Source: Planctomycetota bacterium
GTDB taxonomy: Bacteria; Planctomycetota; UBA11346
NCBI GenBank assembly: GCA_027859175.1
Contig: JAQIBG010000084.1
Coordinates: 1-61,235, forward strand
Length of the DNA stretch: 61,235 nucleotides
Direction: 5' to 3'
This document shows positions 24,481 to 45,500 of this stretch, piece by piece. Under the pieces are notes generated by a model. It did not search any database and had not been told where the DNA came from. It worked only from the letters and a program-made list of their open reading frames with translations. Numbering within the stretch: position 1 is the first letter of the stretch; each line of letters begins with the position of its first letter. The position numbers and the translations under genes are program-made.

Positions 24481-25437
24481 CTAACGTTTCTGCAGTTGGT
24501 AGCGCAATTCCCAGCGCTGCGTTGCGCCCGGCTCCACCTGAATCGCAACGTAGGGCTCTGGGCACACCACCTTGCCAGTGGCATAGAACTCGAAGCGATC
24601 AACAGCACCGGTTCCGCTATACACCAAGGCCACACCGGGGGCCTCAACGGTAAACGCGTTGTCGCCCGCTTGAGCCTTGGGGAATGGCGTCCACAGGGTG
24701 CGCTTCAAGGGCGCTGGGAACGCGATCCGCTGATCAACCAAAGTTGTCGCACCAGCGAAATTTTTGACCCGGTCTTCGCGTGGGGTCGGATCGAAAGGCA
24801 AGGCCACTGCCAAGCCAGGGCCCACCGGATGGCCATCGATGCTAATAAAGTTGTGGGCGTAATGATCGGTCACCAGGGCGGCTTTGCCGTTGTTGGTCAG
24901 CGCATGGCTGATTACCACCGCCGGACTGTCAGCAGCCACCGTCACGCTCACCACGTAGGTATAGGCGTAGCCACCAGCCTTCAGCGTCTGCGTCGACACC
25001 ACCGCCGTATCGCTGGCCTCGTTCACCCACACCGGCACTTTGGCCAGGGCATAGCTGTTGTTGAATTTATAGTCTTTGTCATCGGGCTTGGTAATGAGCC
25101 CCACGCCCACCTTCAACGCGGTGCCACCAGGCTTGGCTTCAGCAAATCCGACCGCAGCGCGCAAACCGAATTCGGCCGCGGTTCCGATGCCGTGCTCGGG
25201 ATGGGTCGGATTATGGGGCGTCCGCCAGGGCGCGAACACCGTGTGCCCCTGCCAACGGATCTCTGAAACCATGCCGGCCCAACAAAAGCGCGAGCCGCGA
25301 TAAAAGCCCGTCTCGGCATCGGGCAGATACACGCTGGCCTCAAGCCCATCGGCACCGGTGAGCACCGCGTGCGGATACTCGCTGGCCGCAAGACCAAGGG
25401 CCAGCACGCATACACTTAAGCACGACAAAACACGCAT
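24481..25437 (-). CDS. Secreted galactose-mutarotase/aldose-epimerase-like protein
   Basis: Signal peptide; YLPDAETGFYRGSRF.W.GMV, YAHNF, VCPEPY, W...Y terminus. Confidence 0.6.
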   Translation of the reverse strand: MRVLSCLSVCVLALGLAASEYPHAVLTGADGLEASVYLPDAETGFYRGSRFCWAGMVSEIRWQGHTVFAPWRTPHNPTHPEHGIGTAAEFGLRAAVGFAEAKPGGTALKVGVGLITKPDDKDYKFNNSYALAKVPVWVNEASDTAVVSTQTLKAGGYAYTYVVSVTVAADSPAVVISHALTNNGKAALVTDHYAHNFISIDGHPVGPGLAVALPFDPTPREDRVKNFAGATTLVDQRIAFPAPLKRTLWTPFPKAQAGDNAFTVEAPGVALVYSGTGAVDRFEFYATGKVVCPEPYVAIQVEPGATQRWELRYQLQKR

Positions 25438-25454
25438 GACAATACCTAACGACC

Positions 25455-28400
25455 TCAAGGACGGTGGAACAATTGCTCGGTAGGCAGCGGCGCCTTGGGC
25501 TGACCATGGGGCCGCCAGAATGCCTCTAAATGCTCGCCGCCGCTGTTTTCAAAGAACTCAACCGCGATTGGATAGAAGCCTGGTTTGAGCGTCACGGTAC
25601 CGAAACGCTCTTCGGCACCGTGCAGGCCATCGTTATTCACAACCACCTCATCGCCAATCAGCATTCGGCTGCCATCATCCGACACCAAGGAGAAGGTGTA
25701 AAAGTTCATTTCGTCAACGCGAATATAACCCATGAAACGCAGGCCGATATGTTCGCGATGCTCGGTCACGGAAAGGTCTACCTTGGTGGTGACCCCGCTC
25801 TCGGCGATTTCGACGTTTTCAAAGTCGGGGATCTTATCCCAAGAACCCCGGAACTGATCGACCACAAGGCCGGCCGCCAATTCGCTTGGCTCCAAGCGCT
25901 CAGGTTCAGCCACGCCCTTGTGGCCCTTTGTCTCCATCACCTCGATATCACGCACCGCACCCTTGCCGTCGCGCTCAACAATATCCAACTGGAAGGTCCA
26001 GCCGCCGTTTGAGCCCATGGTCTGCTCAACCAAGATGGCGCTCCAGCCCTTGGCCAACCACACCACCGGTGGTTGCGCAAACGTGCCGCGATGAGCAGAA
26101 CCAGCAAACCGACGGTTGACCCAGATGCGCGACGGGCCGTCACCAGCAAACTCGAGCGCCACCTGACGCTGATCGGGTGACTTGACCCACACCACGGCAT
26201 ACGCGATCGAGGGTTCGAGCGGATTACCTAACCAATGCGCCAGCGGAACCCGCGCGGTTGAACACGTGAGCGGCGTCCAACTCAAAGTACGATCCGGCAT
26301 CCGGTAGCGCTCTTTGAGCGTTATCTGGCGCAAACGCGGCGGCAACGGCACACCATAATCGTACTCCTGCAGGCTCACCTGCGGGAACGGCCCCACCACG
26401 TGAAAATCGCGCACGTAGTCATGATCACGATACAACTCGGCGCGGCGGAATGCGTAGGCATCGCGCCAGGGAATCTTGGCCCGCGTCATCATCGCATCCA
26501 TCTTCGCGCGGCGTTCATTCTCGTCCGAATACACCCTGCCGGCCCGCCCCCACCATTCCTTCATGATGGTTGCTGAGCGCGGGTGATCAGGGGTCTGCGT
26601 CAAGAACAACTCCAAGGCCTCTAAGGCCGCGTCGTTATCAAGGCCACGCGCGCGAATGAGCGCCGAACAGAACCCGGCAGCGGCATAGGCCTTGCCCATG
26701 CGCGGCAGCACCTCGGTAAAGAGACGCTGCGCCTCTTCTGGGGTCAATTCTGGGCTCTCTGGCCAATCCCACTTTTCTAAGTGCCGCATGTCGGGCTTTT
26801 TCTCTGCCGTCGCGTACTTGCGATAAAATGAAACCACCGGTTCGGCGAAACCAAGCTCCTTGGCAAATTCCTCAACCTGCGGCAAAGGCTTGGCACCAGC
26901 CCTGGGTGGTGCCAATACGGTATGCAGTCGAATCAACACCATGGCGCCAAAGGCATCGGCGGTGTGACCAGCCACAACATCACGCACAAAATCTTTGCCC
27001 GCTGGCCAGTCGCCGATGTGGACCTCCATAGTGTCGATCAAGAATGTGTGGGCCTCAGACATCTTCGGCATCACGCTCGCCAGTTCGACACCGGCCTTTT
27101 CCTGGACCGGCGTGGCATGATGCAGGCGCAAGGTTGTGCGCGGCCATGCCACGCGCGGTACACCATCGCGCATTCCGGCCACAGCCAGAATAACATCATC
27201 AGCCAAACGACGCTTGGGGTCGCTAACCGAATCAATCGGTATCGCCACCTCCACCACCCAACGCTCAAGCGCTAGGTCATAGCGCATCGCCGCCTGGGTT
27301 TCCTTCGGCACAGTACCGCGCAATGCCACCTGACCATCGGCGCCAATGCCAACCGCAATGATGCGATCAATGTCATCGCCGTCTTTGCCGGGGTACTCGT
27401 TGCCGCGCACTTGTAGTTCAATCCACTCGCCACCGCCGCCGTAACGCCCCGCTCCAATCAGATTCCGCCCTTCGGCACCATCCCATTGCACGCCAATCAG
27501 CAGGTTATCGCGATCATGGGTAACGCGAAGCACGCCATTGCGCACCTCGCGTTGGTAATGCGCGAAGTCAGACCACTCATCCAGATCACCGTCCAAGGCC
27601 AAGCGCGTATCCAACGGAAAAGCGACGCCAATCTCGTGGCCCGCGCGGCCCTCGCCAATCGGAACCTGTGTGTAATCAACCCGGCGCACTTCACCCGGGC
27701 CGCTCACCCAGGCATAGCCATCACGCCACAAGATCTGGTTGCTCCACTTCGGACGGGCGACACCGGGCGGTTGATTCTTATCGTCACTACGGAAGTCCCA
27801 GGTGTGCGGCGCCAGATCTGGCAAGGACAGGCGGCCCAGATGAGCCCCATCAGCGCCAAATCGATCAATCGCCAGGTGATCAGCATCATTGGGCGCCCCT
27901 TCGGCCGCCTGCCAGCGCCCGCGACTGCTCACCATGAGGCGGTGGCGGCGACTGAGCACCAAGAGTTCTTTGCCAAGCGCGTGCCATTCCCTGGGCTCAA
28001 ACTCGTGCCCGGCAACGCTGCGCGGGAAGTCAAATCGCTTCTGCTCTTTGAAGTCATCACCGATACGGATCAGCAGGTCGCGCTGCGCGCGATAGAAACC
28101 GGCATCTGCGGCGACATAGTTCTCGTCATTATTCTCATGGATCTTCAAGGGTTTGTCGCGGTCGTGACGGAAGAAGCCCCACATATCATTCTTCTGCTTG
28201 GAGTGGTTGTACCCACGCCCAATCAGGGCCACAGCGCGCTGACCAGCAACCGACCACCGCAGGCTAGAATTGCGATCCCGAAGGAAATGCATGTCAGACC
28301 CATGATTGACCACCTTGCCCTTGGCCAGATCTACCGACACCACCTCGCCATTGGTTAAGCCAGTCCAGAAGATCGAATCCTCTTGCTTGGTCGCTTTGCT

Positions 28401-31301
28401 CCAGGCCTCTCCCTTCCAAGCCGCAATTTCCTCACCGGGCCGCTCTTTACCGTCTTCACCCAAAGTGAGCAGCTCAAAGAAGCTTCGCTTCTTGTCACGG
28501 TGGACGTGATGCATCAACACCATCACTTTGCTGTTCGTGCGCTGCCAAGCCACCGGGTGATACCAATGGCCCCATTGGTCTGAGGTTTGAATCAGATGGC
28601 GCATGGTCTCTTTACCGCTAGCTGCCTGCACATAGCGCACCTCACGCTTGTCGCTTGCAGCGTATAGCACCACAATGGCACCCTCAGCGTCGGCGCGCCA
28701 ACCGGCAACCCGGTTGTCAAAACGATGACTGACCGAGCGCTTACCGTCGGCAATATTGACCACATCCAAACCACGACTCGACAGCAGTAACACCTTATCG
28801 CCGCACAGGGCCGCCTGCCAGAGATCCACGGCACGCTGCCGAGTCCACACCACGGAGCCGCGCGCCAGATCGATCAACTCAACACGGCCCGATGAGAACA
28901 ACACCGCGTGCTTATCACTCTCCGCTGCGATCCGCGGCGTCTCGCGATGCACGTGGTCGTGAGTCGCCTTTGAACTGCTACGATACTGTGGCGCAACCAT
29001 CAGTAATTTATCATCAAGCACGGCCACGTCTGCCTGCGGGGCTCCGCCAGGCAAGCTACGTCGTTCGATCTCAACACCGCTAATCGATGCCATCCTAATC
29101 AACTGGTCGCCAGCAACAAACACCAGGTCCTGACCGCGGTACGCGACCTCGCCCTTGATCTCCAGATCCAGTTGCCGAGTCCACAATACGTCACCAGTGG
29201 TTATCGCCAAACCGGTGAGGCGATCACGCTCACGAATAACCAGTACACGCGCGTCGCCACCAACAATTGAGGCCGCGGGGACCATGGGGTTCGACCACCG
29301 AACCGATCCGTTTTGCCGGTCGAGTGCCACCACACCATGGCGATCGCGTGCCACCACGGCAATCAGGCCATCGGCCACCAGGGGCGCCGATCCTGGGCGC
29401 CACATCTCAGCATCTTTGGCCTCATAGTCATGGCGCCACAGCACCAAGCCGTCGCGCGGGTCGATAGCGACCACGAAACCAGCCGATGACGACCAGTACA
29501 TCAAGCCATCGGCAAACACCGGGGGTGCGCCCATCAGGCTTGGATTGAAAGCAACACCGGAGCGCTCGCGAGAGCCACCGGTGGCATAATCGGTAGCGAA
29601 ACCAATTTCACGATGCCACAAGGCGCGACCATCGAACAGGTCCAAGCACGCCAGGGCAAAGCGATAGTTCTGGCCCTCAGGAACTTTGACCACTACGTAG
29701 ACACGGTTTCCATCTATGACCGGGTCGCAGACCGGCACCCAGTTGCCAAGGGCCATAGTGTCATCGGTCGACCAGCGCATCTCGCCATCGTCAACCGAGA
29801 ACGCCGCAATTGATCCCGGCACCTGGCGCAGGGCACGAACATTGCGCCGTAGCGCCAAATCAGCCCGTGCAGGATCATTACGCAGGATGACTTCAGGGCT
29901 CGCCCAGCGCTGAACGATAAGCCCATCGGCCACGGCCGGCTGCCAAGCGCCCGGCCCAACCAAAAACCGGCCACTACTGCCAACGTGTTCAGGGTCCCAC
30001 TCGGCCGGAGCATCGCGCATCCATAACGGGCGACCCGGCTTGGCGGCATCAAAGCCTACGATGAGATTCGGTGCACTGCCAATAATGCGATCGCCAATGC
30101 GCTGATAGCGCAAGCCCGGCGCAGTGCGGGCGGCAAAGTCCCACGGGTCCCACCAGTCACCAAACAAGGCTGGCGACCAAGCGGCGCGCGCCGGTACCAG
30201 CACCGCCGTTGGTTTGACGTCTGACAAGGCCACACTGGGTTCGGCCGGCTCTTGCAGTTTGGCCAGCACATCGCTGCGCTTGGCCTCCTTGGCGCCCCAG
30301 GGAAAGCTTTCGGGCAAAGCGGCGGCGACGTCTTCGGCCGCGGCGCGTTTGTCCTGGGCAATCAGGCACAGCAACAACCCACGTTGGGCCTGTTGCAGCA
30401 TCGCAGGGTCAGCAGCGCTGGCGATGAGATCACGGAAGCAGGCTTCCGATTGGTGAATAGCGCCGCGCGCCACGGCAGCCTCGGCCTGCGCCAGCAGTCC
30501 TTGTTGCGTGCGCGCGTCAAATGGCGCGGCCCGCCACTGGGCCACCGCTGAAGCGAGGTCCTCAGCCAGACGGCCCTTACTGGTCACAGTTATTTCGGCA
30601 CGCTTCTCGGCTGCCAGCGTCGCGAAGCGCAAGCGCAGGGCCCACCAAGCCTGCACAGCAGTGCCAGGATCTTCATTGGTACCAATGCCGACCTCAGCCG
30701 AATCGGGCGCCGCGAGTGCCGCCTCCATCGCTTCGGGCACGGCTGCTTCGGCAAGATCATCGGCGCGGACCCGATCTAATGCCGCCTGCATGGTCTTGTC
30801 TTCATAGAACCACTTGGCGTGACCATTGACGACTTTATCGGTGTGATACCACGCCAAACGCGTCGCGTATGGGCTATAGAGACGCGCCGCTGTGCTGCGG
30901 TCTCCACTCTTGAACAGCAAGCCGATGGCAACCAGGCGATTCTCAACACTCGCCGGGTAGATCATCTGCAGACCGGCCAACGGGATGCTGGCGCTGAACA
31001 AAGCGCCACGGTCGGAGTGCCGGTAGCGCAGCGCGCGCAACTCATTCACCAAACGCTCGTCTTGCCCGGTAATCGCCCCCATGCGCACCAAGGCCACTAA
31101 GGAACTGGCCGCCTGGTCAGACCAGGGCTCCGGCGCGTCTGCCAGCAAACGCAGCAGGCGCGGATAGGCATACGACACATCACCCGGACGCGCATCGATC
31201 TCAGCAGAAAGCGCCGCCCAATCAGGCTCGACCTTCTCTTCACCGAGCACACAGCCGACACACAGGCAGCAGGCAATTAACACACGGATCGCGCTCACCA
31301 C
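25455..31301 (-). CDS. 1948-aa secreted protein: helical N-terminus, PQQ/BamB-like beta-propeller repeats, CBM9-like domain, helical region, jelly-roll and PA14 domains
   Basis: Repeated AxDxxxGxxxW blades (AIDPRDGLVLW, ALDRQNGSVRW); LDGDLDEW; PA14 motifs FSLVSDDGSRM, NDGLHG, FFENSGG. Confidence 0.8.
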   Translation of the reverse strand: MVSAIRVLIACCLCVGCVLGEEKVEPDWAALSAEIDARPGDVSYAYPRLLRLLADAPEPWSDQAASSLVALVRMGAITGQDERLVNELRALRYRHSDRGALFSASIPLAGLQMIYPASVENRLVAIGLLFKSGDRSTAARLYSPYATRLAWYHTDKVVNGHAKWFYEDKTMQAALDRVRADDLAEAAVPEAMEAALAAPDSAEVGIGTNEDPGTAVQAWWALRLRFATLAAEKRAEITVTSKGRLAEDLASAVAQWRAAPFDARTQQGLLAQAEAAVARGAIHQSEACFRDLIASAADPAMLQQAQRGLLLCLIAQDKRAAAEDVAAALPESFPWGAKEAKRSDVLAKLQEPAEPSVALSDVKPTAVLVPARAAWSPALFGDWWDPWDFAARTAPGLRYQRIGDRIIGSAPNLIVGFDAAKPGRPLWMRDAPAEWDPEHVGSSGRFLVGPGAWQPAVADGLIVQRWASPEVILRNDPARADLALRRNVRALRQVPGSIAAFSVDDGEMRWSTDDTMALGNWVPVCDPVIDGNRVYVVVKVPEGQNYRFALACLDLFDGRALWHREIGFATDYATGGSRERSGVAFNPSLMGAPPVFADGLMYWSSSAGFVVAIDPRDGLVLWRHDYEAKDAEMWRPGSAPLVADGLIAVVARDRHGVVALDRQNGSVRWSNPMVPAASIVGGDARVLVIRERDRLTGLAITTGDVLWTRQLDLEIKGEVAYRGQDLVFVAGDQLIRMASISGVEIERRSLPGGAPQADVAVLDDKLLMVAPQYRSSSKATHDHVHRETPRIAAESDKHAVLFSSGRVELIDLARGSVVWTRQRAVDLWQAALCGDKVLLLSSRGLDVVNIADGKRSVSHRFDNRVAGWRADAEGAIVVLYAASDKREVRYVQAASGKETMRHLIQTSDQWGHWYHPVAWQRTNSKVMVLMHHVHRDKKRSFFELLTLGEDGKERPGEEIAAWKGEAWSKATKQEDSIFWTGLTNGEVVSVDLAKGKVVNHGSDMHFLRDRNSSLRWSVAGQRAVALIGRGYNHSKQKNDMWGFFRHDRDKPLKIHENNDENYVAADAGFYRAQRDLLIRIGDDFKEQKRFDFPRSVAGHEFEPREWHALGKELLVLSRRHRLMVSSRGRWQAAEGAPNDADHLAIDRFGADGAHLGRLSLPDLAPHTWDFRSDDKNQPPGVARPKWSNQILWRDGYAWVSGPGEVRRVDYTQVPIGEGRAGHEIGVAFPLDTRLALDGDLDEWSDFAHYQREVRNGVLRVTHDRDNLLIGVQWDGAEGRNLIGAGRYGGGGEWIELQVRGNEYPGKDGDDIDRIIAVGIGADGQVALRGTVPKETQAAMRYDLALERWVVEVAIPIDSVSDPKRRLADDVILAVAGMRDGVPRVAWPRTTLRLHHATPVQEKAGVELASVMPKMSEAHTFLIDTMEVHIGDWPAGKDFVRDVVAGHTADAFGAMVLIRLHTVLAPPRAGAKPLPQVEEFAKELGFAEPVVSFYRKYATAEKKPDMRHLEKWDWPESPELTPEEAQRLFTEVLPRMGKAYAAAGFCSALIRARGLDNDAALEALELFLTQTPDHPRSATIMKEWWGRAGRVYSDENERRAKMDAMMTRAKIPWRDAYAFRRAELYRDHDYVRDFHVVGPFPQVSLQEYDYGVPLPPRLRQITLKERYRMPDRTLSWTPLTCSTARVPLAHWLGNPLEPSIAYAVVWVKSPDQRQVALEFAGDGPSRIWVNRRFAGSAHRGTFAQPPVVWLAKGWSAILVEQTMGSNGGWTFQLDIVERDGKGAVRDIEVMETKGHKGVAEPERLEPSELAAGLVVDQFRGSWDKIPDFENVEIAESGVTTKVDLSVTEHREHIGLRFMGYIRVDEMNFYTFSLVSDDGSRMLIGDEVVVNNDGLHGAEERFGTVTLKPGFYPIAVEFFENSGGEHLEAFWRPHGQPKAPLPTEQLFHRP

Positions 31302-33175
31302 TCCACCTCCACAGCCTTATCGTCTTGATCCATCAAGCGCACCCGCAGCCACCAATAAATGTCAAGGTTGCTGCACTTCACCAAGATGGTGTTTCGACCT
31401 TGCTGCAGGGTCACGGTCGCCTTGCCAGTCACCGCAGGATACGACGACCCACGCTTCTTCGACTCACCATCCCACCACTTACGGCGATCGCGCCGCGACT
31501 TGTCCATATTCTGAGCGACACTATCGGCCCCCTCGGTGATCACGCGCTGCCCATTGAGCCACACGGCCACGGCATCATCAGCCTCCACTTCCATCACCAC
31601 CTCGCGCTCCATATCGGCCGCAAATTCGGTGTAGGCATAGGCGGTAGCAAATTCTACTGGCGGGGGGAAAATGTTATGCAGCCGCAAGTACCCACTCGAT
31701 CCGGTAATTTGCTCAGACCAACTCAAGCTAGGCATATTGGCGGCTGCCCAGCGGTCCGGTACCGGATAGGTGGCAGTGAGATCGACGCGATCCTCCGGTG
31801 GATGACTGACTCGGAAGCCAGCATTCTCCTGGTCGTTCTCCCACGGGCCAATCACGCGCCAGCGCGGCATAAAACCAGTCAGGGCCGCTACCCGCCAAGA
31901 CTGGCCGCCCTGCCCTGCTTCGGCCAGAGTGGCCCGCGATTCTGCTCGTACATATTTATTCTCGCTGTTCAGTAAAGGTCGCAGCAACGCTATGCCCGCG
32001 TCGATCTCTTCTTCACTGAGGCGACCACGCAGCAGGCGTAGGCCCTGGAGAAGGAAATCGGTATTGCCCCGCTCGAGCAAGGGCGCGACATAGGGCACCA
32101 TGCCGCCGGAGGGAACCGCGTCGAACTCGGCCCGGATGATTCGCACTGCTTCGCGAACGACATCGATATGACTATCAGAAATTGCTGGGCGCAGAATTTC
32201 CAGACCACGCTCGGGATCGTCAAATCCGGCCAGCAAGCGCACGGCACTCATGCGAACGAGGCGGTCGTCCGCCACGACGTAGCGCTCAACCACCGCCGGG
32301 AAGCTCTGGTCGACCTGAACCCGCAACAGATCAATGCCGTGACGCGCCACGTTTGCGTCTTTAATACCGATCTCAAGCAAGCGTGCGATTGCAGCAGTGC
32401 CCTGGGCATCGGGGCGCTCCAGCATCAGCAGCATGGCCGTCATATGCAGACTGTCGGCACTGGGCTGCGTGCAGCGCGCCAACAAAGCCGCATAGGCATC
32501 ATCACTCAAGCCGAGGGCCGCGGTGCGCGCCACGCTGCGGATTGCGCCATCTTCGTCCAACAGGAAGCGCTCAATGCGCAACATCCAGCGCTCACCCTGA
32601 GCCAGGGCCAAACTGCGCACCAAGTCACGTTTGACCGGTGCTTCGGCCGTCGTGTAAAAATCATCAAAGCGACTTGCGGCAGCGCTCGAACCGACCGCGC
32701 ACAAAATGCGACCTTGGATCTCAGCACGTTCCGGGATCAGCTTTTCCACCGTTGGCCGCAGCGCGCGCCAGGCGCCATCGCCTTCATGTTTGGCAACGGC
32801 CCAGGCTGCGGCATAGCGTACCGCTTCGTCTTTATCTGCGAGCAAGTCAGTGGCCAAATCACGTGCCTGACGCGTGCCCAAGATGACGCAGGCGTCGGCC
32901 GCCGCCAAGCGCAAGGCTGGGTCAGCAGACGTAGCAAAGGCCGCTAACTCTTTACCAATGCGGTCGGGAGCATGCCGCGCCAGAGCCACCAAGGCTCGAC
33001 CGCGCAACCAAGGCGCTTGATCACCAGCGACAATCGCCGCCACCGCATTGGCGCCGACGTCATCACCAGCCTGGAGTTCGAGGGCGTCCCACTGGCGGAT
33101 CCAATCCGCCGCTGGCAGGCTTACGATCCCGAGCAGTACAAGGCTCAAGACGCTAACCGGGATACGCGTGCGCAT
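31295..33175 (-). CDS. Secreted HEAT-repeat protein with C-terminal galactose-binding/PA14-like jelly-roll
   Basis: GGAGG RBS at ATG 33175; signal peptide; HEAT units DPALRLAAA, DEAVRYAAAWA, DRLVRMSAV; WRVIGPW...ADDAVAVWLNG...GRNTILVK. Confidence 0.8.
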   Translation of the reverse strand: MRTRIPVSVLSLVLLGIVSLPAADWIRQWDALELQAGDDVGANAVAAIVAGDQAPWLRGRALVALARHAPDRIGKELAAFATSADPALRLAAADACVILGTRQARDLATDLLADKDEAVRYAAAWAVAKHEGDGAWRALRPTVEKLIPERAEIQGRILCAVGSSAAASRFDDFYTTAEAPVKRDLVRSLALAQGERWMLRIERFLLDEDGAIRSVARTAALGLSDDAYAALLARCTQPSADSLHMTAMLLMLERPDAQGTAAIARLLEIGIKDANVARHGIDLLRVQVDQSFPAVVERYVVADDRLVRMSAVRLLAGFDDPERGLEILRPAISDSHIDVVREAVRIIRAEFDAVPSGGMVPYVAPLLERGNTDFLLQGLRLLRGRLSEEEIDAGIALLRPLLNSENKYVRAESRATLAEAGQGGQSWRVAALTGFMPRWRVIGPWENDQENAGFRVSHPPEDRVDLTATYPVPDRWAAANMPSLSWSEQITGSSGYLRLHNIFPPPVEFATAYAYTEFAADMEREVVMEVEADDAVAVWLNGQRVITEGADSVAQNMDKSRRDRRKWWDGESKKRGSSYPAVTGKATVTLQQGRNTILVKCSNLDIYWWLRVRLMDQDDKAVEVEW

Positions 33176-33198
33176 GCGCAGCCTCCCCTTCTCTGGTA

Positions 33199-36319: not shown

Positions 36320-37996
36320 TTACTCCTTGTCCTTATTCGAGCCAACCTGCTTACGCAGGGTTTCGACTTCGACTTCGATCGGTTTTTGCTTGGCCTTCAA
36401 TTCCGCGATGCGGTTTTGCACCTCGGCGAAACGTTCGGTGATGTATTGTTGGTACTCAAGCATACTCAACACGCGCACTTGCAGTTCTTGGCTGCGGCCG
36501 ACGCGCGCTTCGCCGGTAGCGGCGTGCACATCGTGGGCCTCCAACTGCAAGACGATCTCATCGCTAGACTTGAGATACGGCAGTTCGTCGCGCAAACGCC
36601 ACGCCAGGGGCCACACGCCAAAGCGAGGATAAGCGAGATGCTTCTGATCGCCCGGCTTGCTCAGCGCCGGCAAATCGACGCCGAATTCTTCGCCACCGTT
36701 AACCCGGTACACAATTTTCATGGACTCGATGCCGTAGTCGTCCTTGGCTTCAAATACCATCTCCAGCGTCTTTGCAGTGGTCACCGCAATCTCGCCAGTT
36801 GGCTGCCGTAGGGTGACCACCGGGGCGCGATCCACCTCCAGGGCGAGACGTCGCGGGGTGCCATCGAAGCTAAAGCCTTGACCCTGGGCGCTAACCTGCC
36901 AACGCACAAAGTAACTGCCGCCGATATTCGCAGTGAACTCGGCCTTCACGGCCTGGCCCTCGGCGCTGAGTTCCATCGCCTGCTCGGTGCCGTCTTCAAA
37001 TACGAGCGTTGCTTCGGTTACCGCCGAACCCAGCTGCAAGTCAAGCACCACGGTCGAACCTTCAGGTGCAGCGAAGCTCAGGTCTTCGGCCGTGCGTGGC
37101 TCCTCACCGGTATAGCGCGGCGGGGTTATCGCGATTGTGGTCTGCTTGATGTCAGGCGGGCCGACTACCTCAATGGTGCCGTGTTCATCGCGGCGATGCG
37201 TCACGGCATCGCCAACCGCAAAACGGAACGCCAGGCTGCCAGCCAAATGCGGCAGCTCGTGCTCGAAGCGATCACCGTCCAACTTATCGAGTTGAAGCTG
37301 TTGCCAGTTGGCATCCGGATCATCAAGCGGCCGCACCATCAGCGTACCGAGCAATGGCACGCGGCCAGACACTTCAGCGGCGAGCATGACCTTATCGCCA
37401 CGACGTACCAACTGATCGCCCGTAATGCTGACAAAGCGCGTTTTGGTCGGATACGGCACATCGGCGCCGAGCATGCGTTGTGCCGCGATGAGCATGTGAT
37501 CGGTGGCCAGCGCGCCAAACGCACCAAAGACCAGCACCAAGGCCAAGGCCCCGGCCATCAAGCGGCGCAGATTGGCGAACGATACCACGTTGCGGAAGTT
37601 CAACCCGTGCGCGGCATCTTCGGCTTGATTGCGCACTAGGCCCATCAACTCGGGCGAGCCACAGGCGCGCGGGCCCTGATCGCTATTCAATTCGACGTAG
37701 CTGATCAGCAGGCTGTGCAACTCGGGGTACTCGCGCTCAACGCGCACGGCCACGCGCAGCGCATTGTAGCGCTCAAGGCGGTGCCACCACAGTTTACGCA
37801 GCAACCAGGCCACGAAGCCAATGCAGACCAGCGTCATCGGAATGCGCACCAGCATCGGTAGGTCGAAGGTCCAGTCGGCGAGGAACACAAACAGGAACGC
37901 AACCACCACCCAGCTAATCAAGTGCGCGCCGCCGCGTAGGTGGGTGTGCATCCGGCCTTTGCGCCAGGTGCCGCGTAATTTACTGTCGACGCTCAT
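36320..37996 (-). CDS. Membrane-anchored DUF4175-like protein with Ig-like domains
   Basis: N-terminal TMs, VEREYPELHSLLIS, PPRYTG, DRAPVVTL, AKDDYGI; ATGA overlap with the upstream gene. Confidence 0.8.
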   Translation of the reverse strand: MSVDSKLRGTWRKGRMHTHLRGGAHLISWVVVAFLFVFLADWTFDLPMLVRIPMTLVCIGFVAWLLRKLWWHRLERYNALRVAVRVEREYPELHSLLISYVELNSDQGPRACGSPELMGLVRNQAEDAAHGLNFRNVVSFANLRRLMAGALALVLVFGAFGALATDHMLIAAQRMLGADVPYPTKTRFVSITGDQLVRRGDKVMLAAEVSGRVPLLGTLMVRPLDDPDANWQQLQLDKLDGDRFEHELPHLAGSLAFRFAVGDAVTHRRDEHGTIEVVGPPDIKQTTIAITPPRYTGEEPRTAEDLSFAAPEGSTVVLDLQLGSAVTEATLVFEDGTEQAMELSAEGQAVKAEFTANIGGSYFVRWQVSAQGQGFSFDGTPRRLALEVDRAPVVTLRQPTGEIAVTTAKTLEMVFEAKDDYGIESMKIVYRVNGGEEFGVDLPALSKPGDQKHLAYPRFGVWPLAWRLRDELPYLKSSDEIVLQLEAHDVHAATGEARVGRSQELQVRVLSMLEYQQYITERFAEVQNRIAELKAKQKPIEVEVETLRKQVGSNKDKE

Positions 37997-40323
37997 ACCA
38001 TGCGCCTCCGGCGACGGGCAAACCACTCGGCCCCAGCGCACACCAGAAGTATGACGTAGAGGATCCAGTGATCCCACAGCTCAATATCGGTGCGACGAAT
38101 CGTGACCGGCGTGCGCTCTTTGATCTGTTCAGCGAGAGAATCAATCTCGTCGAGGCGAATCGCCTTGCCGCCACTGCGCGCGGCCAATTGCTCGGCCAAC
38201 TCCCAGCGCATACCCGGCTCGCGCATCTCAACGGTCAGGTCTTCCACAACAATCTGCACTTCGTTGGCTGATTCGCGATCGGCCATCGGTGCCTTGATCA
38301 TGATCGCACCAGGGTCACGTGGCACCATGAAGCCCTGGAAGAAACCAGGCACGCCGGGCACCGCGCTCAAGCGGAGATCCTTCTCGGTGCCATCATCGCG
38401 CACCAACTTGACGGTGTATTCTTCATCGGGGATCGGCTCGAGGAATTCGTTCATGACGTCGGCAAACACCTGCACCTGTTCGCCGGTGGCATAACGCTGG
38501 CCATCAGTCTCGATGGTCACGCGGTCGTTGCCGCCAAGCAGGCGCGATAGGGTCAAGAACTGAATGGCCTGGGCCCACAGACGCTCGTGGTAACGACGGC
38601 CAACCTTGAAGCGCAAGCGCCACAGGTCTTCGGTACCAACAAACATCACCTTACCGGCACCGAAGCGGTGCCAGGCCAGCAAGGGATAGGGATCGGGGTC
38701 ATCGGTGATCGATTCGTTGAGCGACACCAAAACCGTGGCCGAGGGTTTGGCCACCACCGGCGGCAGCTTGCGCAGCGGATGCACGCGCTTCCACACCGCC
38801 ACCGAGGTGCGGATATCGGCATGCAAGTCGGCGATGCCAGACACGATGCCTTCTTCGGTCGGTTGCGGCACGGTGCCGGCCGACACGTCGATCCATTCTT
38901 TGCCACGCACCTTCACCGGCAGCAAATCGGCCAAAGCCGAGCGCTGATAGCTCATCGGCGCATGCTGCGGGCCAGCGATCATCAGCAGGGCGCCACCGCG
39001 TCGTTTAACCTGTTCGGTCATCCACTCGAGTTGTTCGCCGTTGAAATAACTGGCCGGCACATCGCCGATGATGACGAGGTCGAAGTCCCACCCGCTGCGG
39101 CCCTGTTCGGGGAAGCGAGCCAGATATTCGGTCGAATACTTGGCGAGTTCGGCGTCACCCTGGGTCATCAAGAACTTGACGTCTAAACGCTTGTCGCGCT
39201 TGAGGACCCACCGCAGATAGCGGTATTCCCAACGCGGCATGCCTTCAACAAACAAGACCTTGATCTTCTCGTCGATGATCCGAATCGGTTTTACCAAGTA
39301 GTTATTGTCGACCACCACCTCTTCCGGCAACACGTCAATCGCAACCTTCAGCGTGTGGTCACCCGGCACATCAGGCGCGGTGAACCCTGCTTCTTCGATC
39401 TGGGTTCCGCCAATCAGGCTAACGCGGCGACGCTCGATTTCGATGTCGTCCATCGTCACCACGAGGTCCACGCTCCGGGCGCGGAACTGCAGCGAGCTAT
39501 GAATCTGGACCTTCAGCGGCACGTCATCGCCGGCGAACACGTTGTCTTTGACGTGCACGGTGGCGATAGCCAGGTCGGGCGGGTTGGGCAGGCCGATGCC
39601 AACCGGGAACACCGGAATTGATCGATGGCCAAGGCGCTCGGCCATGCCAACCGGGTCACTACCCGAGTTCCAGGCCAAGTCAGACAAGATCACCACGCCG
39701 GCCACGGCCTGGCCGGAGAAGCGTTCAAGCAGATACCCCAAGGCGCTGCCGAGACCGGTATGCGCGTCATCAGCGGCAATGCCCTTGATGGTCTCCGCTT
39801 CAGCATCGGGCAGGGCGCCGGTTTCACCGCCAAAGCTGAACATGCTCAGTTCGTGGTCTTCAGCCAAGGTGGTCAGCAGGCCGACTTCCTCGTTGGTCAG
39901 CGCCGCCTGCGCCAGAGCCATACGCGTGGCATTGCCGGCGGTGCCCTCGGGCATCACCTTGTCGAGATAAGCGCGGTCTTCGGGCTTGTCGCGCGGATCT
40001 TCGATCCCCATCGACTGCGACTTATCAACCAGAATTAAGACACGGTCGGCGCTACGCGAGGAGTACTCGAGTCGCAACACCGGCTGGAATAGCATCAACA
40101 AGATGGTGACGATGCCCAACGTGCGCAGGATCGCCATCACGGTGCAATACACGGTGCCTTGCTGGCGATGGCGCCAATAGCTCCAGGCCGAGAACGCAGC
40201 AGCGCCGAGCAAGCCGGCAAACAGAACCGAACTCGGCCACGGATTGGCCAGCACCCACTCAGCGTAGGAAATCTGATCGACGTCGCTGACATCACCAAAC
40301 CACGACAACCACTCGTAACTCAT
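37993..40323 (-). CDS. Membrane protein with VWA, Ig-like and class I glutamine-amidotransferase-like domains
   Basis: LVDKSQSM MIDAS, ILSD, KVLFVEGMPRWEYRYL, GGALLMIAG, GAGKV...LWR, terminal EWFARRR. Confidence 0.85.
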   Translation of the reverse strand: MSYEWLSWFGDVSDVDQISYAEWVLANPWPSSVLFAGLLGAAAFSAWSYWRHRQQGTVYCTVMAILRTLGIVTILLMLFQPVLRLEYSSRSADRVLILVDKSQSMGIEDPRDKPEDRAYLDKVMPEGTAGNATRMALAQAALTNEEVGLLTTLAEDHELSMFSFGGETGALPDAEAETIKGIAADDAHTGLGSALGYLLERFSGQAVAGVVILSDLAWNSGSDPVGMAERLGHRSIPVFPVGIGLPNPPDLAIATVHVKDNVFAGDDVPLKVQIHSSLQFRARSVDLVVTMDDIEIERRRVSLIGGTQIEEAGFTAPDVPGDHTLKVAIDVLPEEVVVDNNYLVKPIRIIDEKIKVLFVEGMPRWEYRYLRWVLKRDKRLDVKFLMTQGDAELAKYSTEYLARFPEQGRSGWDFDLVIIGDVPASYFNGEQLEWMTEQVKRRGGALLMIAGPQHAPMSYQRSALADLLPVKVRGKEWIDVSAGTVPQPTEEGIVSGIADLHADIRTSVAVWKRVHPLRKLPPVVAKPSATVLVSLNESITDDPDPYPLLAWHRFGAGKVMFVGTEDLWRLRFKVGRRYHERLWAQAIQFLTLSRLLGGNDRVTIETDGQRYATGEQVQVFADVMNEFLEPIPDEEYTVKLVRDDGTEKDLRLSAVPGVPGFFQGFMVPRDPGAIMIKAPMADRESANEVQIVVEDLTVEMREPGMRWELAEQLAARSGGKAIRLDEIDSLAEQIKERTPVTIRRTDIELWDHWILYVILLVCAGAEWFARRRRRMV

Positions 40324-42476
40324 TGCACCACCACCCCGGCGCCGAAGCCCACCTTGATCGGGTCGGCTGCCACCTGCTTGCGGCGGGTAAACTTATCGCT
40401 GAGCCAAGCCTGGATGATAAAGCACAGCAGGCCCAGCACGAGCAGGAGGCGCCACAGTTCGGCCATGGTGTCGTTGCTCTCTTCTTCAACGGCGTCACCA
40501 GCACCCTCAACCAAAACGCCGGTATCGGCCAACACGCCGGCCAGCGCATTGCGGCCCAGAGCGCTGATTTTGCCTTCTTGCGGCTCGATGTTGACGGCAG
40601 CGTGACGCACGCCCACGTCTTCGGCCAAGCGGATGGCATAGAACCCGGGCTTGGCCAGTTCGCCAAACTGAATCGTAGCGATGGTTTCGTCGCCACCCAC
40701 GGTACCAACCACGCGATCTTCGTCGGGCGTGCTCATCACCGCCTCGGCACCAACTTCTTCAATCGGCACCGCTATGGCGAGCTCCTGGCCCACCGCCAGC
40801 GAACTGCGCTTCGACGCGGTCAGATGACCGAGCAGTTGATGCAATAAAATCGGATACACCGGCGACACCGGCAGGTTGGTCCACGCGCGGTCAATGCTGG
40901 TGGTAAGCAGCAACACCGTGCCGCGCCCAACCTGATGCTCGAGCAGAACCGGAATCCCACTCTCGGTGGTCAGCAACACGCGCGCGCCATCGGTGGGTTT
41001 GCTCGTGACCAAGCCGTTCACCGCCACCTCGTCAACATAATCGGCAACGCGGGTCAGCTCCTCAACCACCGGGTGGCCGGATTGGCCCAGGCGCAGGCTC
41101 TCGCTACTCGCCGCCCCGCTTGCCTTGCTTTCGAGCAGAGTTGCTGGCAGGAGGTCGCCGAGCGAGGCCTGAAGTCGCGCTGGATCAACTTGGTCGCCAA
41201 GCGCCACCAAGAGGTTGCCGCCGCGCTCAAGCAACTCGCGCAACTTCTCTTGTTCGGCGTCACTTACCGCGGCCACGTTAGCCAATACCACCAGGTCTTC
41301 ACGCCCGGTCAGCTCCATCTCCAAGTCAAAGAATGGCGCCACGCGCACTTCCATCCCTTGGCCAAAGCCAGAGCGATGCAGACCCAAGGCCTTAGCCAGG
41401 AAGAAGGTTTCGCTGCGTTCGATCACCGCGTTGGGGGTGCCGTCTACACACAGCACGCGCACTGCGTCGGGCACTGCCGCCACCTGGAAGCGCGCATTGT
41501 CGATAGCGAGGTCATCGTCCACCCAGGTGGCCTGAAGGCGACGATCACCGGGTTCGCGGAACGGCACGGTGAAGAAAACAAAGTCGGACGCGCCCGGATC
41601 AAGCGGACCAACGTCGCGGGTATCAACCGGGCTGCCGTCGAGGTCCAAACGCACCGCACCAGAAACCGGATCGCTGCCATGATTCACCACCTCGGCCACA
41701 TAACGCGCACTGGCGCCAACACGCAGCGCACCCGAGGCAAACTCAAACGACCGAATCGTCACATTCTCGCCACCGGCTTCGGTCACCGGCACCACATTCA
41801 CCGTGGCCAATTCGCTCAGGGCTTCGAGGCGGGTTCGGGTGGTCGGGGGCAAAGGCTCCCAGTCGCTCCCTTGGCCGTCGGTCACGATATAGACGCTGCG
41901 CTGGGGCAGAGCGATCTCTTCGGCCAACTCTGCGGCGAGGTCGAGACCTTCGTCGAGACGCAAGGGTTCGGGCAGCACTTCGAGTTCTTCGATGATGCGC
42001 TCGAATTGACGCGGGTCGTACGCGGCGGCGCGCAGCAGCACGCGCGGCATGCGCCCGAGCTGGATAAAGCTGATCGGCGAACCCGAGGGCACTTCCTCGG
42101 CCAATTCTAGCAGACGCTCCTTAGCCATATCAAAGCGCGTCTTGAGCGCGCCATGGCCCATTGAGTAGCTGCTGTCGATGACAAACACCACGCCACGGCG
42201 TTCTTGGCCAATGATGCCACCACCATCGGTGGTCAGAGCCGGGCGCAGCAGAGCCAGTGCAATCAAGAACAGCGCCAGGCAACGCAGCAGCATAACCAGC
42301 AAGTCTTCGTACTTCACTTCGCGCGAGCGGCTTTGCATGGTCCGCCGCAGCAGCTCCATTGCGCCCCACTCGATCTTTTTCGGGCGGAACTTATTGAACA
42401 AATGGATGATTATCGGCGTTGCAATGCCGATGCCACCCAGGATGCCCCACAACAATAAGGAATTAACGAAGACCAC
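40320..42476 (-). CDS. BatA-domain / VWA / GATase-like membrane protein
   Basis: PIIIHLFN..RPKKIEWGAMELL, LLRCLAL..LRP (BatA double TM); VIDSSYSM; VTDGQ; DDLAIDN. Confidence 0.88.
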   Translation of the reverse strand: MVFVNSLLLWGILGGIGIATPIIIHLFNKFRPKKIEWGAMELLRRTMQSRSREVKYEDLLVMLLRCLALFLIALALLRPALTTDGGGIIGQERRGVVFVIDSSYSMGHGALKTRFDMAKERLLELAEEVPSGSPISFIQLGRMPRVLLRAAAYDPRQFERIIEELEVLPEPLRLDEGLDLAAELAEEIALPQRSVYIVTDGQGSDWEPLPPTTRTRLEALSELATVNVVPVTEAGGENVTIRSFEFASGALRVGASARYVAEVVNHGSDPVSGAVRLDLDGSPVDTRDVGPLDPGASDFVFFTVPFREPGDRRLQATWVDDDLAIDNARFQVAAVPDAVRVLCVDGTPNAVIERSETFFLAKALGLHRSGFGQGMEVRVAPFFDLEMELTGREDLVVLANVAAVSDAEQEKLRELLERGGNLLVALGDQVDPARLQASLGDLLPATLLESKASGAASSESLRLGQSGHPVVEELTRVADYVDEVAVNGLVTSKPTDGARVLLTTESGIPVLLEHQVGRGTVLLLTTSIDRAWTNLPVSPVYPILLHQLLGHLTASKRSSLAVGQELAIAVPIEEVGAEAVMSTPDEDRVVGTVGGDETIATIQFGELAKPGFYAIRLAEDVGVRHAAVNIEPQEGKISALGRNALAGVLADTGVLVEGAGDAVEEESNDTMAELWRLLLVLGLLCFIIQAWLSDKFTRRKQVAADPIKVGFGAGVVVQ

Positions 42477-42482
42477 TCGGCC

Positions 42483-43520
42483 CTACCTCCCCACCGCATG
42501 CGGTTCATGGAGAGCGGCCTCGGCCGGCACCACGCCGCTGCCCTTGAGGGCGATCAACACGCGCTTTTTGCCTGGCACGTCAAACTGCCACAAGCGGCGC
42601 TCGCCTTCGGGCACCACCAGCTTGGCGACACTGCGCTTGTCGATAGCGGCCACTAGGCCAACGGTGCCGCGCCGGGCTTCCACCAGCATCGCCACCCGGC
42701 CCTTGTCGAGAGTCCACGTCAGCATGCTGTCGCTATGGAGCACAAGGCCGGCCGCAGGATCGGTTGGATCGATAGCGCGCGGCACCGGCACCTCGGCCAG
42801 CAAGCCCTGATGGCGCACTACCTGAGCGCTCGCGCTCAGCCACTGCACACCTTGATGCCGACGCAGACTGTGCACGGCATTCATCGGCACGGTAAGCGCG
42901 CCAAAGCGCGGGTGGGTGCAGCTCAGCTTGCCATCGGCAAGGGTCCAATCAGCGCGCAGACGGGCGCCGCCATGCAACACAAGCGTATGCGAACCAACGC
43001 CGTTAGCTGGCTCACGCCAGAGGTAGGCAACTGCGTCGCCATCATCGACTGAAAAGTCACCAAGCTGCGAGCTGACCACCACGCCGCTGCGCATGAGGCG
43101 CTTGAGATTGCCACTCACCGCCGAGGCATCACGCCGTACCAGGGCCGGCAGACTCTCAGGCGTCGCGATCGCACGCTGCGGCTGCAACAAGAGCGCGGCG
43201 AGGTCATCGGCGGCGAGTTCTAATTCGGTCCCTGGGTCGGCAGCGAAGCGCAATTGCTGGCCGTCGTAGCCAAGAATCTGACCCGGATAGCGCTCGCCAG
43301 CGCTGGTCACCACCGCATACGGCGCGAGCGGCGCACGGGCGCGCTCGCCGGCGTGAAACCAACGCAGGTCTTTCCAAGCCACTGAACTCTTACCAACCTG
43401 CAGCGTCGCACCCTTGGCCACCACCGTGCCCTCAAGCGCTTCGCCACCAGCCTGAACCACAGCCGCGCCGAGCACCGCCGGCAAAAACATCGCTATCGCA
43501 ATGGTCAGCAAGCGCGGCAT
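42483..43520 (-). CDS. Hypothetical secreted beta-rich protein of the MoxR operon
   Basis: Signal peptide MPRLLTIAIAMFLPAVLGA; TGATG overlap with the DUF58 stop. Confidence 0.7.
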   Translation of the reverse strand: MPRLLTIAIAMFLPAVLGAAVVQAGGEALEGTVVAKGATLQVGKSSVAWKDLRWFHAGERARAPLAPYAVVTSAGERYPGQILGYDGQQLRFAADPGTELELAADDLAALLLQPQRAIATPESLPALVRRDASAVSGNLKRLMRSGVVVSSQLGDFSVDDGDAVAYLWREPANGVGSHTLVLHGGARLRADWTLADGKLSCTHPRFGALTVPMNAVHSLRRHQGVQWLSASAQVVRHQGLLAEVPVPRAIDPTDPAAGLVLHSDSMLTWTLDKGRVAMLVEARRGTVGLVAAIDKRSVAKLVVPEGERRLWQFDVPGKKRVLIALKGSGVVPAEAALHEPHAVGR

Positions 43521-44428
43521 CAGATCCGGCCCCAACTCATCACGCGGCGCACGTTGAGATATTCCACCAACACTTCGCGCACTGGTCGGCGGGTGTCGAC
43601 CAGCACATAATCGGCGCCGCTACGATCGCAGGCTCGCCGATAGGTGGTGATCAATTTATTTAATTCTTCCAGATAGGCCGCGCGCACGCGGTCGGGCTGG
43701 GTTAGGATCGCCTCTTCACCCTCGAGGCCATTGAAGCGGACCTGGCCATCAAACGGGAAGGTCAGCTCGGCGTGGTCGAGAATGTGGAAAATCACCACGT
43801 TATGACCAGCAAAGCACAGCTGATTGAGGCCCTTGATGAAGCCCTCTTCGTCGTCGAGCAAATCCGAGAACAACATCACAAAGCCGCGGCGCTTGATCCG
43901 CGACGCAAAGCTCTGCAAGATGCCGCCAACGTTGGTGCGCGAATTACCTTCGGTTTTATTGAGGATCTCAACCATGTCGCCGAGCACGGCCATCGACGAA
44001 CGCGGCGGGATATAATCGCGCAGCACTTCGTCGAACACGCCGATAGCGGCGCTGTCACGCGCCTCCACCACCAAGAACGCCAAGGCCGCCGCCATGTGCT
44101 TGGCGTACTCCATCTTGGTCATGCCGTCGGACCCATAGCGCATCGAGGCCGAGGCATCGATCAGCAGGTTGGCATCGAAGTTGGTTTCAGCTTCGTACAG
44201 CTTGACGTGATAGCGGTTGGTGCGCGAGTATACGCGCCAGTCGACATGCTTTACCTCATCGCCCGGCACGTAGGGCCGGTGATGCGAGAAGGTTGTAGAC
44301 AAGCCGCGCAAGCGCGAGCGGTGGGCACCAATGCGAGCGCCTTCTACGGCACCGCGCGCCACCAGCTCGAGCTGCTTGATCTCATCGACGACATCGGCGT
44401 CGAGATACTTGGAGTTGCCGACCGCCAC
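43520..44428 (-). CDS. DUF58 (VWA-like) MoxR partner protein
   Basis: G.HRSR.RG.S..F..HRPYVPGD..KHVDWRVYSR, YEAET, IDASASM, FSDLL. Confidence 0.93.
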   Translation of the reverse strand: MAVGNSKYLDADVVDEIKQLELVARGAVEGARIGAHRSRLRGLSTTFSHHRPYVPGDEVKHVDWRVYSRTNRYHVKLYEAETNFDANLLIDASASMRYGSDGMTKMEYAKHMAAALAFLVVEARDSAAIGVFDEVLRDYIPPRSSMAVLGDMVEILNKTEGNSRTNVGGILQSFASRIKRRGFVMLFSDLLDDEEGFIKGLNQLCFAGHNVVIFHILDHAELTFPFDGQVRFNGLEGEEAILTQPDRVRAAYLEELNKLITTYRRACDRSGADYVLVDTRRPVREVLVEYLNVRRVMSWGRI

Positions 44429-44438
44429 CGATCCGCCC

Positions 44439-45500
44439 TCAGACCTCGACCGGGATGGCTTCGAGCAGCTTGCGAACCAGATCGTCGGAGGTGTAGCCTT
44501 CGGCCTGGGCGGTAAAGTTGGGGATGATGCGATGGCGCATCACCGGGAGCGCTACCGTCTGCACGTCTTCCACCGCCGCGTAGTACCGACCGTTGAGCGC
44601 GGCACGGGCCTTGGCGGCCTGAATCAGACACAAGGACGCACGCGGACCAGCACCCCAGGAGATGAACTCCTTGATGAAGTCGGGCGCTTCCTCGCGCTTC
44701 GGACGGGTGGCGCGAGCAATGCGAGTGGCATACTCGATAACCGCGTCTGCCACCACGATGTCTTTGACGATGCCCTGACCGGCGATGACGTGCTCCTGGG
44801 TCAACACCACCTCGGGGGTCCCCATGCCGTCGCTGGTCACTTTCTTGACGATCTGCACTTCTTCGTCTTCGGTCGGGTAGTCGACCACGATCTTGTACAG
44901 GAAGCGGTCTAACTGGGCTTCCGGCAAGGGGTAGGTGCCTTCTTGGTCAACCGGGTTCTGGGTTGCGAGCACGAAGAAGGGCGGGTCGAGCTTGTAGTTC
45001 TTACCACCAGCAGTGATCTGCTTCTCCTGCATCGCTTCCAGCAGGGCGGCCTGGGTTTTGGGCGGGGTACGATTGATTTCGTCAGCCAGCAGGATGTTGG
45101 TGAAAATCGGGCCCTTCTGGAACTGGAACATGCGCTTACCTGTGACCGGGTCGTCTTGCAGCAATTCCGAGCCAACGATATCCGAGGGCATCAAGTCGGG
45201 GGTGAACTGAACCCGGCGGAACTCAAGCTGCATACACTTGGCGAGCGTTGAGATGAGCAGGGTTTTAGCCAAGCCAGGTGCGCCTTCGAGCAGGCAGTGA
45301 CCTCTGGCGAAAACGGCCGTCAGCACCTCTTCGACCACGTCTTCCTGACCGACGATGACCTTGCCAAGCTCCTTCTTAAGGACGCCAAAGGCCTGGGCCA
45401 GGCTGTCTACGCGCTTTTGATGCTGATTATCGGCTTGTGTCATTGATGCCTCCGGGGGGGTAGCCGTGGCGACGTTAGCGTTGGCCGGCTGAGAGTCCAT
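44439..45500 (-). CDS. MoxR family AAA+ ATPase
   Basis: GAPGLAKT Walker A, RVQFTPDLMPSD, LLADEINRTPPKTQAALLEAMQE, ATQNP, YPLPEAQLDRF. Confidence 0.96.
   Translation of the reverse strand: MDSQPANANVATATPPEASMTQADNQHQKRVDSLAQAFGVLKKELGKVIVGQEDVVEEVLTAVFARGHCLLEGAPGLAKTLLISTLAKCMQLEFRRVQFTPDLMPSDIVGSELLQDDPVTGKRMFQFQKGPIFTNILLADEINRTPPKTQAALLEAMQEKQITAGGKNYKLDPPFFVLATQNPVDQEGTYPLPEAQLDRFLYKIVVDYPTEDEEVQIVKKVTSDGMGTPEVVLTQEHVIAGQGIVKDIVVADAVIEYATRIARATRPKREEAPDFIKEFISWGAGPRASLCLIQAAKARAALNGRYYAAVEDVQTVALPVMRHRIIPNFTAQAEGYTSDDLVRKLLEAIPVEV

Follow-up and report, generated by a model that had tools for sequence, protein, structure and literature searches.

The eleven genes on the minus strand of a 61,235-nucleotide (nt) stretch of a Planctomycetota genome (GenBank contig JAQIBG010000084.1, assembly GCA_027859175.1; hereafter the window) are best described, from the relationships of their encoded proteins, as a Planctomycetota expansion of the MoxR–DUF58–BatA/von Willebrand factor A (vWA) operon of the Bat/Cmd type. 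The conserved core comprises a MoxR ATPase, a DUF58 protein, two membrane vWA proteins, a DUF4175-type stalk, an α/α toroid and an NPCBM-type protein, and the predicted sugar-binding tips at its distal end are, as far as sequence comparison goes, lineage-specific additions and not the sign of a new sugar-uptake system. We favor, with a probability of about 0.5, an ATP-driven machine anchored in the inner membrane that would assemble or remodel a periplasmic scaffold whose lectin domains grip envelope or periplasmic glycans. This reading draws on gene content, synteny, intact ATPase and MIDAS (metal-ion-dependent adhesion site) motifs, and protein folds, while each of its coupling steps is one that we infer.

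The open reading frames (ORFs) run from 45500 down to 24481 (Table 1), and the common strand, gene order and tight junctions reported in a first-pass annotation of the same DNA are confirmed, with gaps of 28 nt or less. With the longest ORFs, the successive junctions measure 10, −16, 6, −4, −85, 3, 28, −4, −7, and −4 nt; the 85-nt overlap of g5 and g6 shrinks to a 4-nt ATGA overlap if g6, whose ORF begins at 38077, starts at its likely true start Met28 (37996), and the −16 overlap of g2 and g3 becomes −1 if, reading from the sequence, g3 starts at Met6. Forty ORFs of the window were scanned with Pfam, and the eleven operon proteins were also checked against NCBIfam. The Pfam matches bear out the earlier calls of MoxR, DUF58, BatA-VWA, DUF4175, α/α barrel, HEAT, propeller and PA14 domains, and g3, g7, and g11 match neither collection. 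Membrane topology was predicted by a hydropathy scan and by analogy. The earlier picture of a cytoplasmic MoxR/DUF58 pair accompanied by membrane vWA proteins and secreted scaffold subunits is supported.

Table 1. The eleven genes in operon order, with window coordinates and predicted products (aa, amino acids; HMM, hidden Markov model; TM, template-modelling score)
Gene	Coordinates	Strand	Predicted product	Features and matches
g1	44439..45500	−	MoxR (MRP-type) AAA+ ATPase	353 aa; no signal or membrane segment
g2	43520..44428	−	DUF58 vWA-fold adaptor	302 aa; predicted cytoplasmic; Pfam DUF58 E 1e-43
g3	42483..43535	−	Secreted degenerate NPCBM/NEW2-domain subunit	HMM of 19 syntenic NPCBM-type proteins, E 1.2e-21
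g4	40320..42476	−	N-terminal BatA membrane hairpin, vWA, CARDB/Ig, GATase-like domain, C-terminal membrane helix	718 aa
g5	37993..40323	−	Membrane hairpin, vWA, Ig-like and GATase-like domains, C-terminal membrane helix	776 aa
g6	36320..37996	−	N-terminal half of DUF4175-type stalk	3 predicted membrane helices and β-rich domains; DUF4175 E 6e-11
g7	34244..36316	−	C-terminal half of stalk	Signal peptide, coiled coil, acidic G/P/A linker
g8	33199..34215	−	Secreted (α/α)6 toroid, squalene-cyclase/prenyltransferase fold	Pfam SQHop_cyclase/Prenyltrans
g9	31295..33202	−	Secreted HEAT-repeat protein with C-terminal PA14/galactose-binding-like jelly roll	Pfam HEAT_2; EADDA motif
g10	25455..31301	−	Secreted multi-domain propeller protein	1948 aa; PQQ_2 E 9e-23, PA14 E 3e-11
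g11	24481..25458	−	Secreted galactose-mutarotase-fold protein	Atlas model match TM 0.94, automatically named cluster

At the head of the operon, the MoxR protein keeps intact Walker A (GAPGLAKT) and Walker B (ILLADEINR) motifs and matches Pfam AAA_3 with E 4e-63, next to a weak bpMoxR match (E 6e-10). The DUF58 adaptor carries the MIDAS residues D91-x-S93-x-S95/T165/D189, of which D, S, S, and D recur in all 24 orthologues and T in 21. In g4, Pfam recognizes BatA, VWA, CARDB, and DUF4350/DUF7408 (BatA PF07584 E 6.5e-14, TIGR02226 E 5.7e-17), and no Cys stands in the elbow-like stretch of its GATase-like domain; its MIDAS is intact in the window and most of 14 near orthologues, and degenerate in the Phycisphaerae set (42 sequences). 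The second membrane vWA protein, g5, has only a weak DUF7408 match in Pfam, yet a homologue is present in 30 of 31 relatives, and its MIDAS is essentially invariant among 61 orthologues, with two conservative S/T swaps. This near-invariance, set against the degenerate BatA MIDAS of Phycisphaerae, points to g5, the best-conserved of the predicted periplasmic sites, as the one that works. With a Walker-intact MoxR leading the operon and DUF58 and MIDAS-bearing vWA proteins behind it, the locus has the makeup of an MRP-type MoxR operon.

The stalk is divided between g6 and g7, whose equivalents in other lineages are fused or split at different points. HMM matches cover both the N-terminal part of g7 (E 7e-10) and its tail (E 6e-7), and the tail alignment reveals a conserved C-terminal motif, W-x-x-L...R...Y...YY/F..LA; in DUF4159-type clusters, too, the stalk terminates in this motif, in an abbreviated version. 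The linker of g7 contains a 39-nt tandem repeat of about 10 copies (window 35172-35717) that encodes an acidic 13-residue unit, and residues 216–615 hold 78 Asp/Glu versus 6 Lys/Arg. Read-through at the in-frame g6/g7 junction was considered and rejected, given the TAA stop and the signal peptide of g7 itself; the out-of-frame spacing in relatives such as L019 and L025 further rules it out. The upstream g3 is, on the strength of its family match, the NPCBM-type subunit relocated from its normal place after the toroid gene.

The toroid itself probably serves as a hub for binding, with a conserved pocket, and not as a terpene cyclase. Its model (predicted local distance difference test, pLDDT, of 86.5) has its best match in squalene-hopene cyclase 1gsz (Z 26.4, root-mean-square deviation 3.0, 280 aligned residues), followed by GH76 (Z 23.6), epimerases (Z ~23), and complement thioester domains (Z ~19–20), a comparison that does not single out terpene cyclases, GH76/epimerases, or complement thioester domains. 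DxDD, the catalytic motif of class II terpene cyclases, occurs neither in g8 nor elsewhere in an alignment of 58 toroid sequences, and D-x-S stands where prenyltransferase β-subunits have D-x-C, their zinc motif. Invariant across those 58 sequences are M114, Y115, E126, D168, S170, T172, R225, and Y271, and the C-terminus RxLPIxQR is conserved. Complex prediction for the toroid with the g7 tail returned a score of 0.00 twice, with the partner poorly folded, and speaks neither for nor against their contact.

Among the tail proteins, g9 and g10 together are likely a split version of a propeller giant found across the window's family, since the g9 jelly roll corresponds to the second PA14-like module of the giant (E 1.4e-7, giant HMM positions 775–874) and g10 to its propeller, third module, and terminal PA14. 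From its helical N-terminus, g10 proceeds through a PQQ/BamB-like propeller, a CBM9/DOMON-like stretch, a helical region, and a degenerate PA14-like module (GDG) to the terminal PA14 (SDDG), which is homologous to RsgI3-type PA14 structures. A fold search supports the jelly roll proposed earlier for g9, with Foldseek matches at E ~1e-4 to Epa, Flo, and PA14 lectins and Z ~10 to GH2 sugar-binding domains and RsgI3. An adjacent Asp-Asp motif plays a role in Ca-dependent PA14 lectins, and it is kept in the g10 terminus (SDDG) and the g9 module (ADDA) and lost from the inner g10 module. The CBM9-like call of the first-pass annotation is a lead only in g10 (ESM Atlas score 0.88), and is firmer in syntenic orthologues, which pass the Pfam CBM9_1 cut-off. 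The best solved relatives of the propeller are BamB proteins, although its BamB score reaches 52 versus a family cut-off of 285 bits. In 5 genomes, the best family homologues of g10 are encoded downstream of the toroid orthologue, at a distance of 5–7 kb. As for g11, the mutarotase-like fold is supported by the Atlas match. H202 and E301 are invariant in 14 sequences, His and Glu being catalytic in mutarotases, while g11 has no Pfam match and a PDB sequence search with its alignment gave 0 matches. Homologues of g11 occur in 7 of 30 relatives, in each case with no operon gene within ~1.5 kb, and both g11 and the HEAT part of g9 are missing from all 156 other loci; by these comparisons g11 is an accessory gene, unlinked to the operon in other genomes.

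Which of these parts belong to the machine proper can be read from its distribution. A search with one Phycisphaerae toroid yielded 553 related stretches among species genomes, and the best 80 of the 553 were taken as the Phycisphaerae set, whose bias to that class follows from the single query. Their order is DUF58–BatA–vWA–DUF4175–short tail gene–toroid–NPCBM-type gene, whereupon the operon ends; MoxR heads it in the 5 genomes with upstream sequence read. The DUF4175 stalk was detected in 73 of the 80 loci and the NPCBM-type gene in 65 with the family HMM, rising to 78 with an HMM from the set itself, a partly circular count. HMMs of the giant, PA14, and PA14-like modules matched none of the 80. 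Taking this as absence of the giant was rejected, because each of the 5 complete Phycisphaerae genomes checked encodes one TPR/propeller protein of 1,420–1,700 aa far from the operon; the giant HMM recognizes three of the five, and all five lack PA14 and CBM9 matches. In the window's family, 20 loci with an NPCBM-type gene were fetched, 2 of which stop at a contig edge, and the giant follows the core in 15 of the remaining 18, measuring 2,065–3,342 aa where complete in one ORF. The HMMs were built from 8 of these 15, 7 of which have independent PQQ_2 matches. Of the 11 giants seen to their end, 7 close with a PA14, and the orthologous giants show TPR matches, mostly weak. The tail claims of the first pass divide: a propeller/CBM9/PA14 giant is indeed syntenic within the family, and PA14-type folds with the Asp-Asp motif are supported, whereas the glycan modules are missing from all 80 Phycisphaerae loci and g11 and the HEAT region from all 156 other loci, and the tail as a defining part of the system is not supported.

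Beyond these loci, 104 of 121 phylum genomes (~86%) have a match to the toroid alignment at E<=1e-60, including 95 of 111 high-quality genomes and some as small as 2.2–2.9 Mb. One family (f28) departs from this, with no toroid match at that threshold in any of 6 sampled genomes that are 99–100% complete, through loss or strong divergence. In two loci (L157 and L161, genomes G005 and G017), the cluster is permuted, with toroid–NPCBM–giant upstream of MoxR and the g5/g6 homologues on other contigs, and in another (L019:1024-2110 and 13916-20000, genome G006) MoxR and the giant each appear broken into two reading frames, by frameshift or assembly error.

The window's genome has MoxR matches on 10 contigs and contains pieces of several paralogous clusters. 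In one MoxR–DUF58–BatA cluster (C351, L051:2-11614), PA14 is inserted in the g5-type vWA protein (1101 aa), and a separate insertion occurs in the next ORF, at the stalk position (at least 1434 aa); genomes G004 and G016 also have g5 homologues enlarged in a similar way. A third type of cluster (C311, L050) consists of a double-DUF4159 gene, MoxR, DUF58, a 1400-aa BatA/vWA fusion, and a 1115-aa protein with a shorter P..Y...YY..L tail, and no toroid was found in its contig; DUF4159 and the toroid may replace each other as subunits. With 13 PA14-bearing ORFs in the genome, PA14 is a commonly shuffled module there.

RNA-library contigs from one study of a saline spring metagenome were compared with the range 26500-46499 and give matches of 99% or more for 21, 17, and 1 of its 30 bins, and single contigs span the g7/g8 and g5/g6 junctions, these being contigs only, in which DNA may be present. 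They leave 26500–28500 and 45843–46499 bare, from which we draw nothing, and g11 lies outside the range compared. Co-transcription of the eleven genes is no more than plausible on these data. Scans of 30000–48000 came out near chance for promoters (3 vs. 3.6 expected) and for terminators (21 vs. 14.2±3.5 expected).

How might such a machine work? In the envelope reading that we favor, the MoxR hexamer would, in the cytoplasm, take hold of the DUF58 vWA adaptor in the manner of NorQ and NorD, and the pair would pull on the short, basic loops that g4, g5, or g6 expose to the cytoplasm. The strain would then reach the periplasmic vWA domains, above all the g5 MIDAS, which would catch and release a partner. 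The stalk of g6 and g7, with its long acidic tether, would hold the toroid, the NPCBM-type protein, and the propeller giant, and in the window's family the PA14/CBM9-like tips would fasten the giant to glycans. We count in favor of this scheme the conserved core order, the near-universal toroid and the near-invariant g2 and g5 MIDAS, the gain and loss of glycan modules around a stable core, and a set of precedents discussed below, namely four-gene homology to a Rhizobium leguminosarum operon, the envelope defects of cmdA-D mutants, BB0173, and NorQ. Several points weigh against it. The client, ligand, and interactions are hypothetical, the topology on which it depends is predicted, similarity to the Rhizobium membrane proteins is partial, with DUF4159 absent here, and the NPCBM-type core subunit and repeated PA14 recruitment fit a carbohydrate-centered function as well. 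Moreover, Leptospira biflexa with all bat genes deleted kept its growth and morphology and had no oxidative-stress phenotype (PMC3557215), so that not every operon of this class has an envelope role.

Much of the same content could instead serve glycan capture and hand-off, an unlikely contender in which imported oligo- or polysaccharides would be caught in the periplasm by the distal lectin domains, with ATP powering either their release or the remodelling of the uptake site. Besides the shared NPCBM and PA14 argument, this would account for the RsgI3-related terminal PA14 with SDDG, the PA14/GH2-like g9 module with its ADD motif, the CBM9_1 matches of orthologous giants, the conserved His/Glu of g11, the GH76 and epimerase likeness of the toroid (Z ~23), a LacI gene 257 nt upstream of the operon, and the 30 ORFs across the genome that bear a sulfatase motif. 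However, Pfam finds no β-barrel, outer-membrane channel, transporter, hydrolase, or sulfatase among the eleven proteins, and the recurrent downstream neighbors that were checked also contain no β-barrel, transporter, hydrolase, or sulfatase. A whole class does without the tips, with at least 9 kb of downstream sequence available in 53 of the 80 loci, g11 keeps no company with the operon elsewhere, and the readiness of PA14 to shuffle lessens the weight of its recruitment. The 257-nt gap contains no convincing LacI operator, and a strong LacI match adjoins MoxR in one other locus only (L021). The uptake function proposed in the first-pass annotation is not supported, because the operon lacks a channel, transporter, and hydrolase and the toroid is near-universal in the phylum, small genomes included. 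Its surface placement fares no better, since none of the six secreted subunits matches the standard lipobox and they are thus likely periplasmic rather than surface-exposed. The absence of TonB-dependent receptors and SusD, rightly noted, extends to all 40 ORFs scanned with Pfam; it says little, as four TonB-dependent receptors are encoded elsewhere in the genome (87.7% complete), which has no SusD match.

Other functions have been weighed for the same parts. In a periplasmic chaperone for protein maturation or export, which we regard as quite unlikely, a TPR/BamB-like giant and the toroid would hold clients that MoxR releases through the vWA chain. The BamB relatives of the propeller, the TPR matches of orthologous giants, and the apparent retention of an unlinked propeller protein where lectin tips are missing would all suit it, as would the description of MoxR proteins as maturation chaperones (extract of PMC11834572), but the BamB similarity falls far under the family cut-off and reflects generic PQQ repeats, and no client gene is linked. 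Also held at low probability is a phylum-wide, undescribed trans-envelope motor in which MoxR powers a periplasmic MIDAS that catches and releases a tethered toroid/propeller head, lectin-tipped in the window's family, to haul or hold periplasmic polysaccharides without SusCD; an equally tentative analogy would liken its coupling to integrin- or complement-like vWA–toroid–propeller arrangements. That the toroid is an enzyme modifying lipids/isoprenoids or sugars, with everything else its delivery and activation scaffold, is improbable: invariant polar and aromatic residues across 58 sequences and closest folds among terpene cyclases, GH76, and epimerases invite the idea, which the missing DxDD, the replacement of D-x-C by D-x-S, and DUF4159 paralogous clusters with no toroid in the stretches read (L034, L050) oppose. 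A system for aerotolerance or periplasmic redox, the original proposal for Bacteroides Bat, is very improbable; the BatA domain and the stress phenotypes of Riemerella moxR/batA mutants (extract of PMC11834572) recall it, whereas none of the eleven proteins has a redox domain in Pfam and the Leptospira deletions described above argue the other way.

The cluster is marked, by its toroid, in ~86% of the sampled Planctomycetota genomes, often in several copies, and in the open literature searched we found no description of the expanded form or its function. It is a good candidate for understanding planctomycete envelope architecture and how MRP-type MoxR ATPases act across a membrane. The window locus is one ordinary family member with informative rearrangements, and its split giant, moved NPCBM gene, and removable lectin tips amount to natural experiments that separate core from decoration, while locus comparison names the key residues and sites, namely the g5 MIDAS, the toroid pocket, and the g7 tail.

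Elsewhere in the window, a 1504-aa acidic coiled-coil protein (52761-57275, minus strand) with generic coiled-coil Pfam matches only is encoded on the same strand as, and downstream of, ppx and ppk. A loose carbohydrate-type neighborhood at 3791-17137 contains GH4, an AraC regulator, an 899-aa β-helix protein, a 1494-aa secreted multi-domain protein, an Omp85-family fragment, and a DUF1559 pilin-like gene; nadC, UDG, dprA, and thiD separate it from the operon.

Among the closest known systems is an R. leguminosarum operon (L168), MoxR–DUF58–BatA/DUF4159–membrane protein, which we take to be of the cmdA-D / RL3499-RL3502 type. Its first genes are shared in the same order, with full-length BLASTP identities of 46% for g1 and 27% for g2, and g4 and g5 match its membrane proteins partially (E 4e-7 and 1e-12; 24–27% over 188–270 aa). 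It consists of four genes and includes DUF4159, for which Pfam finds no match in the window operon, and the stalk, toroid, NPCBM, and propeller giant are not linked to it in the annotated stretch. Mutants in cmdA-D have envelope and morphology defects (Vanderlinde 2011, as cited in the extract of PMC5700661). The Bat operons of Bacteroidota and spirochaetes likewise begin with MoxR, followed by DUF58 and a BatA membrane hairpin with vWA, and the vWA domain of the Borrelia homologue BB0173 is periplasmic (extract of PMC5700661). Unlike them, the window operon has no BatC/BatD/BatE-type matches (TPR, BatD, SH3; Pfam at E<=0.01, 0 of 11 proteins). It has, instead, Ig and GATase-like domains in its vWA proteins and, in addition, a stalk, a toroid, and a giant. 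MoxR, vWA, and β-propeller also co-occur in ternary conflict systems, which fuse the propeller to vWA (extract of PMC7159879), whereas the window's propeller resides only in the separate secreted g10 and its MoxR scores far higher with AAA_3 than with bpMoxR. With SusC/SusD loci the operon has in common carbohydrate-binding-type domains in a co-oriented cluster, and it differs in having no TonB-dependent receptor, SusD, or hydrolase. NorQ/NorD and other MoxR–vWA pairs likewise join a MoxR ATPase to a MIDAS-bearing vWA partner, on which NorQ pulls through its pore (extract of PMC13036017); relative to these pairs, the window operon is without a known client and would place two further vWA domains across the membrane.

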